NCBI GenBank assembly: GCA_046050355.1
Contig: JBJOPW010000003.1
Coordinates: forward strand, 1 to 64,000
DNA from: Candidatus Parcubacteria bacterium
GTDB taxonomy: Bacteria > Patescibacteriota > Minisyncoccia > Phycocordibacterales > UBA918
DNA length: 64,000 nucleotides
Direction: 5' to 3'
Within the stretch, counting starts at the first letter, position 1. Each line of letters opens with the position of its first letter. The notes below the pieces were generated by a model. It ran no database searches. It saw only the letters and a list, made by a program, of their open reading frames with translations, and was not told where the DNA came from. Positions 459 through 43,494 of the stretch are shown here, in pieces. Position numbers and translations under genes: made by a program.

Positions 459-504
459 CTATATAAAATCTTAATGCGCTTTATGGCGCATTTTGATTTT
501 AATA

Positions 505-638
505 GTGACCGGGAGCAAGCAAACTGCTTTGCTTGCGAGCGGGACTTGAAAGCCAGAATATGTCGCTCTGCGACTATGAGGCGGGGTCGCGGAAATTTCT
601 GTAAGAAATTATCTGTGACCAAGTCCCATCCCCGGCAC
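505..638 (+). repeat. tRNA-3'-associated structured element (type I core) after tRNA-Leu(TAA)
   Basis: Inverted tRNA 3' copy (505-514 + 540-550) split by hairpin 515-536; core 551-620; direct copy 620-638 (17/19). Confidence 0.75.
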
Positions 639-647
639 AAAAATAAA

Positions 648-687: not shown

Positions 688-821
688 GTGCCTCCTCAAG
701 GGCTCGACCGTTACACGGTCAGTACACCTTGTGGCTATATTCTCCTGTCGTCGAATCTAGCTCACATGGTTTTCTCGCCACGCAACGCTTTTCTAATCGA
801 AAAGCTACGTCTTGAGGGGGC
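688..821 (-). repeat. tRNA-3'-associated structured element (type II core) after tRNA-Lys
   Basis: Inverted copy 811-821 plus degenerate 772-779 split by hairpin 780-810; direct copy 688-707 (19/20 to 858-877). Confidence 0.75.
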
Positions 822-858
822 GCAATAATAAAACGCACAGGAGTGCGTTTTATTATTG

Positions 859-1157: not shown

Positions 1158-1299
1158 ACAAAACACTAAAGAGTAGTGATGTTTTCTGTGAGGACTTGAA
1201 GAGGTTCTGGTATATCGCACGGAACGTTAGTGAGTATGATACGAAACCTGTACCGAACATGTAATATTCAAGTCCTCACTTCCGCACACTGTGTGGTTT
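1158..1299 (+). repeat. tRNA-3'-associated structured element (type II core) after tRNA-Leu(TAG)
   Basis: Inverted GAGGACTTGAA 1190-1200; motif TGTACCGAACATGTAATATTC; direct TTCAAGTCCTC...GCACACTGT.TGGTTT 1267-1299. Confidence 0.7.
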
Positions 1300-13872: not shown

Positions 13873-13928
13873 AATTTTAGGGGTCCAACCCCGAAATTTC
13901 ACAATCTCGGGGTTGGACCCCTAAAATT
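13873..13928. repeat. REP-like inverted doublet
   Basis: AATTTTAGGGGTCCAACCCCGA and its exact reverse complement, 12 nt apart. Confidence 0.8.
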
Positions 13929-14997: not shown

Positions 14998-16083
14998 ATG
15001 TCAGAAGAAGTAGTAAACAGTGTAATGCATACACTCGCCGCCAACATTCCTGATTCTCCAAAAGAGGGTCAATTAGTAGAAGGTACAGTATCAGCCATCG
15101 GCCGCGCTCGTGTCTATGTCGACCTCCCACCATTTGGTACTGGTCTCATCTTTGGTCGTGAGTACATGAACGCTCGCGACATCCTCCGCAAAGTCTCAGT
15201 TGGAGACACCATTGCGGCGAAGGTTGTTGACGTAAACAACAAGGATGGGTACATCGAGCTCTCACTCAAGGAAGCCCGTCAGGCCCTCATCTGGGCTGAT
15301 GCCGAAGAAGCCGTGAAGAAGGGTACGGTTATGAGTCTTGAAGTGAAGGAGGCCAACAAGGGTGGTCTTATCATGGAATGGCAAGGTATCCAGGGCTTCC
15401 TCCCAGCTTCACAGCTTGGACCAGACAATTACCCACGCGTTGATAACGGCGACAAGGACAAGATCCTTATGGCCCTTAACTCACTCGTTGGTAAGCATCT
15501 CGGTGTCGTCATGATCACCGCTGACCAGAAGGAGCACAAGCTCATCTTCTCAGAAAAGGGTCACCAGGAACGTGAAGAGAAGGGCGAAAAGGTTGGTAAG
15601 TACGAAGTGGGTGACGTCCTCTCGGGCGAAGTGACTGGTGCTGTTGACTTTGGCGTCTTTGTGAAGATTGAACAGGGTCTTGAAGGCCTCGTTCACATCT
15701 CTGAACTTGATTGGGGTCTTGTTGAAAATACTCGCGCCCTCTACAAGGTTGGCGACAAGGTGAAGGTCAAGGTGATTGAAGTGAAGGATGACAAGATTTC
15801 TCTCTCAATCAAGCAGCTCCGTGAAAACCCATGGACTGATGCCGCTCAAAAGTTCGCCAAGGATCAGGTCGTACCAGGTGTTGTTATCAAGTACAACAAG
15901 CACGGTGCGCTTGCGTCTATCCAAGAAGGTGTTGCTGGTCTCGTCCATATCTCTGAATTCGAATCAGAAGAAAAGATGAAGGCTACCCTCTCACTTGGTG
16001 GTGTCTACAAGTTCAAGATTTCTCTCTTTGAGCCATCTGAACAGCGTATGACGTTGACCTTCAAAGATGTAGCTCAGAGTTAG
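14998..16083 (+). CDS. rpsA: 30S ribosomal protein S1 (4 S1 domains)
   Basis: GFLPASQL, FGVFV..EGLVHISEL, GLVHISE. Confidence 0.93.
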   Translation: MSEEVVNSVMHTLAANIPDSPKEGQLVEGTVSAIGRARVYVDLPPFGTGLIFGREYMNARDILRKVSVGDTIAAKVVDVNNKDGYIELSLKEARQALIWADAEEAVKKGTVMSLEVKEANKGGLIMEWQGIQGFLPASQLGPDNYPRVDNGDKDKILMALNSLVGKHLGVVMITADQKEHKLIFSEKGHQEREEKGEKVGKYEVGDVLSGEVTGAVDFGVFVKIEQGLEGLVHISELDWGLVENTRALYKVGDKVKVKVIEVKDDKISLSIKQLRENPWTDAAQKFAKDQVVPGVVIKYNKHGALASIQEGVAGLVHISEFESEEKMKATLSLGGVYKFKISLFEPSEQRMTLTFKDVAQS

Positions 16084-21680: not shown

Positions 21681-22937
21681 ATGGAACAGATTAAAACAGA
21701 CGTTGAGTCATTCGCCCGCATTCGTGTTGTGGGTGTTGGTGGTTCAGGCAACAACGCCGTGAACTACATGGTCGGCGCCAAAGTTAAAGGTGTTGAATTT
21801 ATCGCAATCAATAGTGATGCCCAAGATCTCCATCACTCACTGGCGAAACGTAAGATCCATGTCGGCAAGAATCTCACTCGTGGTCTTGGTGCTGGCGGTA
21901 ACCCAGACATGGGCCGACGTGCCGCTGAAGAAACACGCGAAGAAATTGCCAATGCCATCAAGGGTTCAGATATGATCTTTGTCACCTGTGGTATGGGAGG
22001 AGGAACCGGTACCGGTGCCGCTCCAGTCGTGGCGAAGATTGCTCGTGAGAGTGGTGCGCTCACCGTGGGTGTCGTCACGAAGCCCTTCCTCTTTGAAGGG
22101 CAGGAACGAATGCGCCTCGCTCTCCAAGGCATCGAGGAATTGAAAAAAGAAGTCGACGCACTCATCACCATTCCAAACGACCGCCTCCTTGCCATTGTTG
22201 ACAAAGAGACTACTGTCAAAAGCGCCTTTGAGCAGTGCGACAATGTCCTCAAGCAAGCCGTTGAAGGTATCTCTGACCTTATCACTATGCCTGGTATCAT
22301 TAACGTCGACTTCGCTGATATTCGTAGCGTCATGGAGAACGCCGGTTCAGCCCTCATGGGTGTCGGCGTCTCAGCTGGCGAAAAGCGCGCTGAGGAAGCC
22401 GCCCGCGCCGCTATCAACTCACCACTCCTTGAAGTATCAATCACCGGGGCGAAGGGTGTCCTCTTTGCGATTGCCGGTGGTGACGACCTTGGTATGCTCG
22501 AAATCCAGGACTCAGCACGAGTGATTACCGAATCAATTGATCCACACGCCAAGGTTATCTTTGGTGCGATCAAGGACGACAAACTCAAAAAGAACGAGGT
22601 GAAGGTGACGGTAATTGCGACCGGCTTCCCTGAAGAATCAAGTGGACACCACAGCGCACCAATTGCTCGTCGTGCCCCCATAGCTGAACCATCACCAATT
22701 ATGGCCGAAACCGAGGAGCCAGTAGCTGAACCAGTTCGTGGCCGTATCTTCAATTCACTCACGAACCCACGCCGCCAAGAAGTCGACGAAGCACCAGCAC
22801 CAAAGGTAGACATGATGCCAGAGCCAAAGCCTGAACTCCCTCGCCGTGAACCCAAGCCAGTCGATCCCGTCGACGAAGACGATGAGGACGATTGGGGCGC
22901 CGTGCCGGCCTTCTTGCGTCGTTCAAAACTTAAATAA
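21681..22937 (+). CDS. ftsZ: Cell division protein FtsZ
   Basis: [16 protein letters not shown]-terminal VPAFLRR. Confidence 0.99.
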
Positions 22938-22949
22938 AGTTTTGACGAG

Positions 22950-23280
22950 CAAGGGCCGGCGCGGCGCGGCGGACCGATGTGAGTCGCCCCTTCCTAGGGC
23001 GACGAAGCAGGCCGCCGGGGTCGGAAGTACTTAGATTTTTATGAACGTAGTGAAATAAAAAGCTTAGTAACTTCTGACCTGTTCCTGCATTTCTCCGAAG
23101 GAGCCGAACCAGCAAGCCGCAGCGATACGAACCGCTCCTTCCTAGAGCGGTGAGGCAGCGAGCCGGGTGAGAAATGGGACGGGACCCATTTCGCAAGACC
23201 TTGCCAGCTATCTTTTGAGTGAAAGCGAAAAAGTAGCGACAAGGTGTACTGAACCTGTAAGGTTCGACGGCATTCTCATA
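22950..23280 (+). ncRNA. Tandem type I + type II structured cores in the ftsZ 3' region
   Basis: GGGGTCGG...CTGACC (23017-23079) resembles the Arg/Phe/Leu elements; 23234-23267 is 29/34 identical to the Lys element with compensatory changes. Confidence 0.6.
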
Positions 23281-23342
23281 ATTTAATTTCAAAACCCGAT
23301 TCATGACAAACCCCGTACTCTTGAGTACGGGGTTTTGTTTCC

Positions 23343-23579
23343 CTACAACTTCTTCACAATCGTCTCCAAGAGCATCGTCGTCTCCTCATTAGACCGCTTC
23401 CCACCACACTCCTTGAGCGATAGCAACAGATACTCCTTCACACAGGCATCAAGCGCACCCTTGGCAGCCAAGAATTGCGGCACTGCATTCGTGCATGATG
23501 GCTGGCAGGTCTCGAGGTCAGTGCGGATTTTTTGCAGCTGCCCTTCAACCCGCTTCAGTCGGTTGACGATTGGTTTCAT
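23343..23579 (-). CDS. CsoR/RcnR-family repressor
   Basis: NRLKRVEGQL, C29, Q..AAKGAL, C58. Confidence 0.9.
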   Translation of the reverse strand: MKPIVNRLKRVEGQLQKIRTDLETCQPSCTNAVPQFLAAKGALDACVKEYLLLSLKECGGKRSNEETTMLLETIVKKL

Positions 23580-23584
23580 ATGTG

Positions 23585-23615
23585 GACGAGTATACCCCCT
23601 GTGGGTATACTCGTC
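23585..23615. promoter_or_regulatory. CsoR-type operator
   Basis: GACGAGTATACCC-N5-GGGTATACTCGTC; TAC/GTA around C/G tracts; overlaps TATACT -10. Confidence 0.8.
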
Positions 23616-23663
23616 AACGCAAGCGTGGTACACTATGGGCCTAATTAAATTGATTGTTTTTGT

Positions 23664-40714: not shown

Positions 40715-41002
40715 CAAACATGTTCAGTAAACACTGCCCAACTCGGATTGTTCCGGCCCTAAAGGGAACCCCGGAACAGTCTTTCGAGCCCGCCCCCAAG
40801 CTACAAATAGCAACGACCATGAAACATGCGTTTCGTACAAACGGGCTCGACCCAGAATCGCGGTTATTTATTTCACTGCGTTCATAAACAGACTCGCGTT
40901 CTTGGTCGGCTCCTCCTCGTTTTGCTCGCCCCAGCTCACAAAACATCGTCCGGAGCTTCGAGCCCGCCCCGGACGACATACTCATGTCGTCCTCCCAAGC
41001 AC
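40715..41002 (-). repeat. tRNA-3'-associated structured elements (two units) after tRNA-Phe
   Basis: Inverted copy 40957-41002 split by hairpin 40971-40992; partial direct copy 40842-40850; second perfect 19-nt inverted copy 40783-40801. Confidence 0.75.
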
Positions 41003-43289: not shown

Positions 43290-43433
43290 GTAAGCAATCA
43301 GTATTGCTTACGTACACTTGTGTGAGACGGAACGATGTTTTCGCTATTCCTAATGCCAAAACGAGTGAGTCGGGGTCGAGAACACTTAGTAGTTTAGAAG
43401 CGTAGCGAACTAATATACTTAGTGATTCGTGAC
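43290..43433 (+). repeat. Type I structured element after tRNA-Arg (arms not recognisable)
   Basis: GTAAGCAA/TTGCTTAC hairpin; ACGATGTTTT..AAAACGAG; GGGGTCGAGAA...TTCGTGAC. Confidence 0.7.
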
Positions 43434-43494
43434 TATTGTTAAACAACAAAACCTTTCTGTTAACAGAAAGGTTTTGTTTATGGTTGCTCAAAAC

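Follow-up and report, generated by a model that had tools for sequence, protein, structure and literature searches.

A non-coding stretch of about 360 nts separates ftsZ from the next terminator hairpin in this genome (0.94 Mb on 17 contigs, with 42 tRNA genes), and it holds conserved hairpin modules of a kind that also stands behind tRNA genes. What are these modules, and how did they come to lie behind the gene for an essential division protein? A preliminary description of the window (the whole stretch of DNA analysed, 64,000 nts) had reported two core types in tandem after ftsZ, and proposed both that their structure is under selection and that the cores can exist without a tRNA. The best explanation found, held tentatively, is that the stretch after ftsZ is made up of two stacked small non-coding, non-autonomous cassettes that integrate and can fold back on the end of their host gene. 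As read from the sequences, what the ftsZ locus would contribute is a protein-coding host and, with it, silent-site evidence of imported gene ends.

Layout of the region behind ftsZ

The working end of ftsZ is followed by its inverted copy, by cassette 1 and the displaced end, and then by cassette 2; an older displaced end may come next, ahead of the terminator (Table 1). ftsZ, which is present in 39 of 41 related genomes, has ftsA upstream, and a thioredoxin-reductase-like gene lies beyond the convergent repressor gene. The words that flank the leader of cassette 2, GCAGCGAU...GCAGCGAGCC, are those of the outer helix in the aligned type I units. The possible older displaced end (23268–23295) has two short exact matches to the working end, of 9 and 8 nts, which alone are not above the shuffle level; in the minimum-energy fold its 3′ piece pairs with the start of the inverted copy. 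A 403-nt stretch here folds at −159.8 kcal/mol (z = −5.66), and none of 100 shuffles is as good.

A pattern scan for promoters and terminators revealed no promoter-like site on the plus strand within the cassettes, and neither the fold nor the pattern scan gave a terminator between the ftsZ stop codon and 23308; the ftsZ transcript therefore probably includes the cassettes. [The strict terminator pattern missed the evident hairpin at 23308–23340.]

Table 1. Features of the ftsZ locus in window coordinates; scores for R1 and R2 are by construction, the ftsZ copy being in both seed alignments
Feature	Position	Strand	Description
ftsZ coding sequence	21681–22937	+	418 aa; stop codon at 22935–22937; Pfam Tubulin/FtsZ GTPase 173 bits, FtsZ_C 107 bits
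Working ftsZ 3′ end (S)	22899–22937	+	Last 12 codons, stop codon and 3 nts upstream; long palindrome with the next segment
Inverted copy of the ftsZ 3′ end (A)	22938–22965	+	Begins at the first base after the stop codon; matches S of its own genome (allele-specific)
Cassette 1, a type I unit	22956–23082	+	Covariance model R2, 100.9 bits
Cassette 1, fold	22956–23082	+	Outer helix, variable hairpin, long hairpin (consensus fold, pair counts)
Cassette 1, variable hairpin	22983–23003	+	Loop CUUCCUA
Cassette 1, long hairpin	23017–23079	+	Apex GAACGUAGUGA at 23043–23053
Displaced, untranslated copy of the ftsZ end (S′)	23081–23104	+	Translation VPAFLRRS, then breaks off
Cassette 2, leader module	23105–23164	+	Hairpin 23131–23151, loop again CUUCCUA, different stem; read from the sequence
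Cassette 2, body	23165–23268	+	Hairpin 23171–23192, then core-II module 23190–23268
Core-II module	23190–23268	+	Covariance model R1, 89.3 bits, best of 43 matches in the genome
Core-II fold	23190–23268	+	Long hairpin with GA-rich apex, GUACUG linker, 4-bp stem with UGUAA loop at 23252–23264
Possible second, decayed remnant of the ftsZ end	23268–23295	+	CGGCATTCT ... TTCAAAAC; weak
Terminator-like hairpin	23308–23340		Common to ftsZ with its cassettes and the convergent CsoR-like repressor gene; predicted fold
CsoR-like repressor gene	23343–23633	−	Convergent to ftsZ; Pfam Trns_repr_metal

Two related modules with a conserved fold

The similarity first noticed, between 23234–23267 and the reverse complement of 704–737, was re-checked and is as reported: 29 of the 34 positions are identical. 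Four of the five differences (at 23238, 23253, 23255, 23261 and 23263) form two compensatory pairs in a 4-bp stem around an unchanged TGTAA, with A-U changed to C-G at 23253:23263 and C-G to G-C at 23255:23261. The 34 matching nts are no more than the 3′ part of a longer repeat, about 100 nts in length (23165–23267), copies of which, 90–95% identical, were found by BLAST against the genome on other contigs (C17, C2 and C8).

Alignment of 17 core-II copies from this genome, chosen by requiring the short stem to pair, has 96.3% of its cells paired, double changes in 18 of 21 pairs and a covariation score of 0.61, against 0.14 when shuffled (none of 500 reaches it) and 0.05–0.11 when the partners are slid. 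Since these copies had been chosen on short-stem pairing, the test was repeated without that filter. All four flanking pairs are present at 27 of the 33 sites of the form [GAT]TAC[TAG]G-N4-TGTAA-N4 genome-wide, with 13 different stems, as against 67 of 1209 when all TGTAA sites are taken. For type I, an nhmmer search gave 25 matches, 19 of them full-length; three with a differing upstream part were dropped, leaving 16 units (seven ftsZ-linked from seven genomes, and nine others from this genome). In these, 98.8% of cells pair, 14 of 26 pairs have double changes and the covariation score is 0.53 versus 0.17. The structure is thus kept through compensatory change, and the proposal that it is under selection is supported.

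In the paired columns of the two module alignments G:U outnumbers A:C by 14:1 and 24:1, an excess somewhat favoured by fold prediction rules that accept G:U. It implies that the fold is read on the gene-sense strand, either as RNA or as one DNA strand. The covariation is a constraint on a single-stranded fold, and does not tell RNA from single-stranded DNA.

The apex GAACGTAGTGA is where it had been placed, at 23043–23053 on the tip of the long hairpin 23017–23079, within a match to the type I model of 100.9 bits. That score, like the one for core-II, is by construction since the ftsZ copy is in both seed alignments; independent support comes from five ftsZ loci outside the seed (L005, L009, L015, L022 and L023) that match R2. 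A 2-bp stem within the type I apex is G-C in 8 sequences and A-U in 7, a switch that accounts for the apex variants listed in the preliminary description. The division into two separate core types does not survive. The core-II long hairpin bears the same apex motif as type I, so that the two are not independent but are related modules.

Both strands of the 64-kb window taken together, the word CTTCCTAG, reported to recur in both modules, is present at 22990 and 23138 only. In both places it forms the loop of a hairpin with 7 bp, on stems that differ (22983–23003 and 23131–23151). [CUUCCUA-like loops are also present in tRNA-linked units (Arg-CCT and His) and on contig C13; derivation of the loops from the Phe-Leu codons of ftsZ was dropped on that account.]

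Searches of Rfam at gathering score across the 64-kb window gave no match other than to tRNAs, and with E up to 10 for 22850–23400 there were sub-threshold chance matches only. Five other cassette loci yielded only tRNAs and sub-threshold matches to miRNA-like hairpins. No Rfam family fits, those for ribozymes, the tRNA-linked RtT, LOOT and ROOL/GOLLD included, and no description of such elements was found in the literature and Rfam searched. The self-cleavage for which an assay had been suggested has nothing in its support: no ribozyme family in Rfam matched, and a self-cleaving ribozyme of known class was rejected both for this region and for the five other loci.

Distribution, and the plan behind tRNA genes

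The model for core-II (R1) has 43 matches in this genome. It has matches in all 24 congeners, with 2 to 83 copies each, and in 10 of the 16 other families sampled in the order. With stricter filters, an even sampling of the phylum, 150 other genomes, gave just one with a match, so the core-II model as built is restricted to the order. With the type I model (R2), 95 of 120 other genomes, sampled evenly from the whole order, have matches, more than 600 in all. This breadth exceeds that of the usual selfish repeats and is compatible with a cellular function. Further homologues and covariation, the absence of which the preliminary description had named as refuting its proposal, are both at hand.

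Whether the modules can do without a tRNA has two answers. For the family they can: 18 of 38 strong core-II copies are within 800 nts downstream of a tRNA (15 of them on the same strand) and 20 are more than 800 nts from any upstream tRNA, so copies without a tRNA are normal. The copy behind ftsZ, however, is not a free-standing core, because the ftsZ 3′ end there takes the role of a tRNA 3′ end, in inverted form at 22938–22965 and directly at 23081–23104. [Some core-II copies are antisense between genes.]

Behind tRNA genes the plan begins with the tRNA 3′ end and a terminator hairpin whose palindrome reaches into the tRNA. There follow an inverted copy of the 3′ strand of the acceptor and T-arm, often split by an extra hairpin, then one or two conserved hairpin modules, and finally the part of the tRNA that begins at the T-loop and runs to the 3′ end, in direct copy, with another terminator after it. 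The ftsZ copy is built in the same way, with ftsZ as host. It belongs to this family of tRNA-tail cassettes by its modules with the consensus fold and by its inverted and direct copies of the host end. The duplication is about 23 nts long at tRNAs and 36 nts at ftsZ. Terminators next to the working ends fall into families common to cassettes at different tRNAs, and are unlike the terminator behind the displaced end. Strong terminators stand between the tRNAs and their cassettes, which a DNA-level element fits better than a co-transcribed RNA.

The closest relative (G007, with FtsZ 95% identical) is without cassettes behind tRNA-Leu(TAA), tRNA-Leu(TAG) and tRNA-Lys(CTT). The displaced tRNA-end copies of the present genome bear the bases of that relative and its working tRNAs bear others, though two genomes do not fix the direction, gain here or loss there. 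Where the working and displaced direct copies disagree, the inverted copy has the base of the working tRNA end at 11 sites and that of the displaced copy at 2.

The same logic of end copies was sought at the 11 other non-tRNA clusters of this genome and none was convincing; of the 12, only ftsZ has a clear inverted copy of the end of the upstream gene. Metagenome contig depth is about 300 over the body of cassette 2 and about 12 in its flanks, and contigs from public runs end inside 23164–23271. One metatranscriptome run gave nothing at the locus.

Copies of the ftsZ end, here and in relatives

Local alignment of the inverted copy with the reverse complement of the working end scores 39, where the maximum in 500 shuffles of the direct comparison is 26. 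The duplex energy of the working end is −55.3 kcal/mol (shuffled mean −39.0, none of 200 shuffles as good). In the duplex test, in which the working end is set against the first 90 nts downstream, 4 of 14 filled loci are clear and a fifth is at 6 of 200; the remaining filled loci have inverted copies of 8–12 nts, which are not separable from noise by duplex energy. The inverted copy follows the synonymous ftsZ allele of each genome and always spans the insertion junction.

When the genome's own working end is aligned directly to the region, the nucleotide match to the displaced copies is not significant (scores 14–16, shuffle mean 16.2). It is from the translation and from relatives that the segment at 23081–23104 is identified as a probable displaced end. 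All FtsZ proteins at the loci compared end in the same peptide. VPAFLRRS, the conserved peptide of the FtsZ C-terminus, is here out of context, untranslated and abutting the type I hairpin.

Thirty ftsZ loci were compared, 28 of them with downstream sequence (up to 1400 nts). ARAGORN found no tRNA behind ftsZ in any of the 28, and a former tRNA at this site, which the preliminary description had singled out as what would make the copy a relic, thus has no trace within that distance. Of the 22 loci from congeners, three with 84 nts or less downstream were set aside and 19 with at least 275 nts were kept. Matches to R1 or R2 lie directly behind ftsZ in 13 of these 19, always on the ftsZ strand; the other 6 are empty, with only a terminator before the next gene. 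Seven loci from outside the genus, but within the order, have no match behind ftsZ. Content varies by genome, with type I only, core-II only or both, and with one to four units.

A second, untranslated VPAF... copy is present in 12 of the 14 element-bearing ftsZ loci (the present genome counted), the first such copy being 112–270 nts past the stop codon; the other two have a run of Ns in one case and a truncated trace in the other. It is present in none of the 13 loci that lack elements. In eight genomes the displaced copy still encodes the intact 11-residue end peptide and its stop codon, and these eight were chosen on that ground, the other four displaced copies being truncated. Between displaced and working ends they have 0, 2, 5, 8, 10, 12, 13 and 13 differences in 36 nts. 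All are silent, an outcome with P < 0.001 under random substitution in six of the eight. Such silent-only divergence implies that both the working and the displaced end were in use as gene ends while they grew apart, and on this comparison of sequences the two would be alleles that arose in different lineages and were joined along with the cassette. The closest relative, G007, provides a direct instance. It has an extra cassette, and its displaced copy is 35/36 identical to the working end of the present genome, whereas its own working end is 24/36 identical to that end and resembles the cassette-linked alleles of other genomes. Evidence for imported ends is not proof of integration driven by the element, because filled alleles could spread by homologous recombination after DNA uptake.

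A proposed integrating fold-back cassette

The anatomy, the family membership, the sense-strand covariation, the filled and empty sites in congeners and the displaced ends with silent differences alone are what is observed, and from them a route of insertion can be proposed. The cassette would carry as its cargo a replacement for the host 3′ end (in the case of ftsZ its final 12 codons with the stop codon), the same end in inverted form and one to three hairpin modules. Entry would be at a fixed point in a conserved gene end, the T-loop for tRNA genes and just before the Val-Pro-Ala codons for ftsZ, through recombination between the gene-end copy of the cassette and the chromosomal copy, so that the gene is left intact and its old end comes to lie behind the cassette. 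In a putative single-stranded intermediate (DNA or, less likely, RNA) the direct and inverted copies would pair and present the attachment sequence as a duplex beside the hairpins, with the conserved hairpins perhaps serving as handles for a host enzyme acting in trans. Once inserted behind ftsZ, the cassettes would be co-transcribed as a structured 3′ trailer, and any effect on ftsZ expression would be a side effect. In support of this explanation there is turnover of cassettes at one locus (13 of 19 sites filled, 6 empty, with varied content) in genomes that have from 2 to 83 copies.

No enzyme was linked to the cassette family. The genome has two tyrosine recombinases, one of 403 aa (island-type, non-Xer) and one of 322 aa with Xer-type domains. 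The island-type integrase was rejected as the cassette enzyme since none of 40 relatives has it; the 322-aa Xer-type recombinase, on contig C8, is a candidate. Several further points count against the integrating cassette. No free, circular or excised form of it was seen in the DNA runs, which consist of contigs. How a matching inverted copy would arise when a new gene becomes the host is left unexplained, and copying by simple fold-back falls short as well, the inverted copy being split by an extra hairpin in many of the tRNA-linked copies. The order-wide breadth of the type I unit, and the restriction of a clear inverted copy to ftsZ among the 12 non-tRNA clusters, also weigh against it. A bolder form of the explanation, and an improbable one, is that the inverted copy is a programmable address, by which an element that lacks a protein or depends on a host enzyme finds conserved gene 3′ ends through base pairing, inserts via a folded single strand and swaps in a foreign, synonymously recoded end.

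Alternative explanations

Several of the observations invite an RNA interpretation, in which the modules are cis-acting 3′ trailers that stabilise, terminate or process ftsZ mRNA and pre-tRNA, with the inverted copy pairing to the gene 3′ end in RNA. The G:U asymmetry on the sense strand, the conserved loops and covarying stems, the probable inclusion of the cassettes in the ftsZ transcript up to 23308, the presence of type I units in 95 of 120 genomes of the order and the tracking of the synonymous ftsZ allele by the inverted copy in each genome are all consistent with it. However, 6 of 19 congeners have no modules behind ftsZ, which speaks against a regulatory RNA conserved at that gene, and the filled loci differ in their modules. 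The range of copy number, the strong terminators ahead of the tRNA-linked cassettes and the positions of the 20 of 38 copies that are not behind tRNAs, some of them antisense between genes, also weigh against it, and it gives the displaced gene ends no role. A cis-acting RNA is accordingly considered unlikely, and a purely RNA-regulatory role less likely than an integrating cassette.

A double template switch yields copies in the order forward, inverted, forward, the order that is seen here. It could be that no dedicated machinery is involved, with template switching at naturally occurring hairpins (terminator, T-arm and the palindrome found at the ftsZ stop codon) making the copies, and gene conversion together with homologous recombination after natural transformation spreading the modules. 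Boundaries of the copies do coincide with natural hairpins, T-loop and terminators, the tandem in G007 is obtainable by a crossover between the displaced copy of a donor and the resident working end, and the failure to link an enzyme is as this explanation would have it. Nevertheless it leaves unexplained both the conserved modules, whose stems covary, in more than 90 genomes from across the order and the fixed junction at the base of the module hairpin, and the working-end terminator families, common to different tRNAs and unlike the displaced-end terminator, are at odds with it. The odds are judged to be well against it.

The genome has three RAYT-like genes and one IS200 transposase, and the structure of the modules is strand-specific, so elements akin to REP or REPIN, moved as single-stranded DNA hairpins by one of the three RAYT-like HUH (Y1) transposases, were considered. 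There is a weak correlation between the number of core-II copies and of RAYT-like genes (Spearman 0.30 over 41 genomes, p = 0.06, and 0.50 within the genus, relatedness being ignored). Yet each RAYT-like gene is flanked by perfect palindromes of its own, which recur at 4–10 loci and are unlike the cassette modules, and no cassette module is beside a RAYT-like gene. Three genomes have RAYT-like genes without core-II (G026, G031 and G034) and two have core-II without a RAYT-like gene (G020 with 22 copies and G029 with 11). Y1 transposition is not known to leave a long target duplication, and long duplications are what the cassettes have. Movement by these transposases is regarded as highly improbable.

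Insertion via RNA, with the inverted copy as guide and with reverse transcription or reverse splicing as the means, would suit the constant coverage of the insertion junction by the inverted copy and the structure on the sense strand, and one reverse transcriptase is encoded in the genome. That sole reverse transcriptase adjoins a LOOT RNA and no cassette, however; no ribozyme or intron family matches, and transcription into most cassettes is blocked by terminators. An element that is retro-mobile or guided by RNA is on these grounds very doubtful. Although 18 of 38 core-II copies are behind tRNAs, that the ftsZ copy is the relic of a tRNA gene once present there can be dismissed with near certainty, since there is no tRNA in the 28 related loci or in this region of the window and the end copies at the site are ftsZ codons and not tRNA sequence.

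Implications

With a protein-coding gene as host, differences at silent sites can be read, and the tRNA-linked copies cannot give such evidence. The model of an integrating cassette that results is testable: a non-coding element of about 150 nts that would insert into essential genes without breaking them and move gene ends between species. If true, it would be a compact and apparently enzyme-less system of target-matched insertion, and a source of cryptic recombination in ftsZ and the tRNA genes of ultra-small bacteria. It would explain why these genomes, when assembled, have 'pseudogene' fragments of gene ends and breaks between contigs, and could provide a natural marker for tracing the exchange of DNA among uncultured lineages. 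Were the inverted copy indeed a programmable address, the cassettes would be a new class of guide-directed integrating element, one by which species would exchange the ends of essential genes such as ftsZ and the tRNAs.

Comparison with known systems

MITEs were considered and rejected, as the paired ends are copies of host genes that differ at each locus, and not terminal inverted repeats of the element's own, and the duplications (about 23 nts at tRNAs, 36 nts at ftsZ) are not of a short fixed length.

In integron attC sites and in the attP(+) site of CTX phage, two inverted segments fold to a duplex-like recombination site and just one strand is used. Structure is kept there while the sequence of the stems varies, the stems bear fixed recombinase-binding words, and integration is at attI or dif. 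The pairing of inverted and direct copies, and the strand asymmetry, may be analogous. The cassette stem differs in copying whichever gene hosts it.

Genomic islands at tRNA genes, and the cis-mobilisable derivatives of them, have a direct repeat of the 3′ part of the gene with the junction in the T-loop; the copy on the element restores the gene and tandem accretion can occur at one site. In the cassettes too a direct repeat of the gene end flanks the insert and the gene is restored, at ftsZ as at tRNAs. In contrast to islands there is no cognate integrase, the sole island-type one being absent from all 40 relatives, each cassette is matched to a different gene, and the inverted copy and conserved hairpins are without island counterpart.

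A parallel in a protein-coding gene is prophage e14 in the E. coli icd gene. According to PMC13626634, which cites Hill et al. 1989, e14 (and phage 21) enters the 3′ end of icd and brings an alternative 3′ end that leaves icd intact, with the original C-terminal fragment, icdC, left at the far side of e14; the two ends differ largely by synonymous changes and recombine on excision. The e14 prophage is 15 kb long and encodes its own integrase. The cassettes are like e14 in replacing a gene 3′ end, in having the displaced end beyond the element and in the silent differences. They are unlike it in being 120–200 nts long and non-coding, in the extra inverted copy and in being at dozens of different genes per genome.

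REP, BIME and REPIN elements, with their RAYT transposases (see PMC3733652), are like the cassettes small extragenic hairpin repeats present in many copies, often at gene 3′ ends, and the genome has genuine RAYT-like genes with flanking palindromes. The modules stand apart, being 60–125 nts long with stems that covary and are not identical, having no terminal GTAG or CGTC tag, flanking no RAYT gene and having long duplications of the host end.

Insertion with long target duplication (Nobusato 2000; Furuta, Abe and Kobayashi 2010) leaves a direct target duplication of more than 30 bp that sometimes overlaps a gene 3′ end, with no mobility gene (PMC2853133); the inserts are kilobase-sized restriction-modification genes and the duplications near-identical. 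The cassettes resemble such inserts in the flanking direct target duplication and in having no mobility gene. They differ in their non-coding hairpin modules, in the added inverted copy and in the silent differences between the members of most duplicate pairs, which point to imported ends.

Cassettes at tRNA genes and at ftsZ

The small non-coding hairpin-module elements (cassettes) that lie behind five tRNA genes of the window belong to the same family as the two stacked behind ftsZ. In the closest relative (G007, with an FtsZ 95% identical to that studied here), tRNA-Leu(TAA), tRNA-Lys(CTT) and tRNA-Leu(TAG) all lack a cassette, and its tRNA cluster (L078) has a rearranged order and one additional ORF.

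The cassette family breaks assemblies. Public metagenome contigs terminate within the repeat at 23164-23271 of the window, across which the summed depth in public metagenome runs is ~300, as against ~12 in its flanks.

Features of the window and of other contigs of the genome
Feature	Location	Strand	Remark
Cassette behind tRNA-Leu(TAA)	window 500-640	+	ftsZ cassette family
Cassette behind tRNA-Lys(CTT)	window 688-830	-	ftsZ cassette family
Cassette behind tRNA-Leu(TAG)	window 1160-1290	+	ftsZ cassette family
Cassette behind tRNA-Phe(GAA)	window 40760-41000	-	ftsZ cassette family
Cassette behind tRNA-Arg(CCT)	window 43314-43437	+	ftsZ cassette family
LOOT RNA	contig C11, 286-404	+	RF03000, 89.6 bits (L055)
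Reverse transcriptase gene	contig C11, 987-2036	-	349 aa (L055)
Tyrosine integrase	contig C4, 33549-34757		403 aa

Related and neighboring elements elsewhere in the genome

A further pair of look-alike elements, on contigs C13 (~15274-15326) and C2 (~102299), shares the apex motif, the conserved tip of the long hairpin, with the cassettes. The former also has a hairpin with the CUUCCUAG loop, as behind ftsZ. Neither is close to ftsZ or to any tRNA.

On the minus strand of contig C4 (L042, ~68,000-68,300), group I intron core sequence is followed by a tRNA-like 3′ end, at which ARAGORN called no tRNA, with a cassette downstream; Rfam's Intron_gpI model matches there in part (E = 0.35), and the match runs into the end of the locus. 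The tyrosine integrase of the same contig was found in none of 40 relatives and therefore probably marks a strain-specific island.

The LOOT RNA adjoins the sole reverse transcriptase gene of the genome, for which the top NCBIfam match, below cut-off, is group II intron reverse transcriptase/maturase.

A 16-nt palindromic repeat, present as an inverted pair at 13878-13923 of the window, matches the genome 17 times; these matches are spread over ~10 loci and include both strands. On contig C1 the repeat also flanks a RAYT-like HUH transposase gene, one of three in the genome, and together repeat and gene look like a separate, classical REP/RAYT system.
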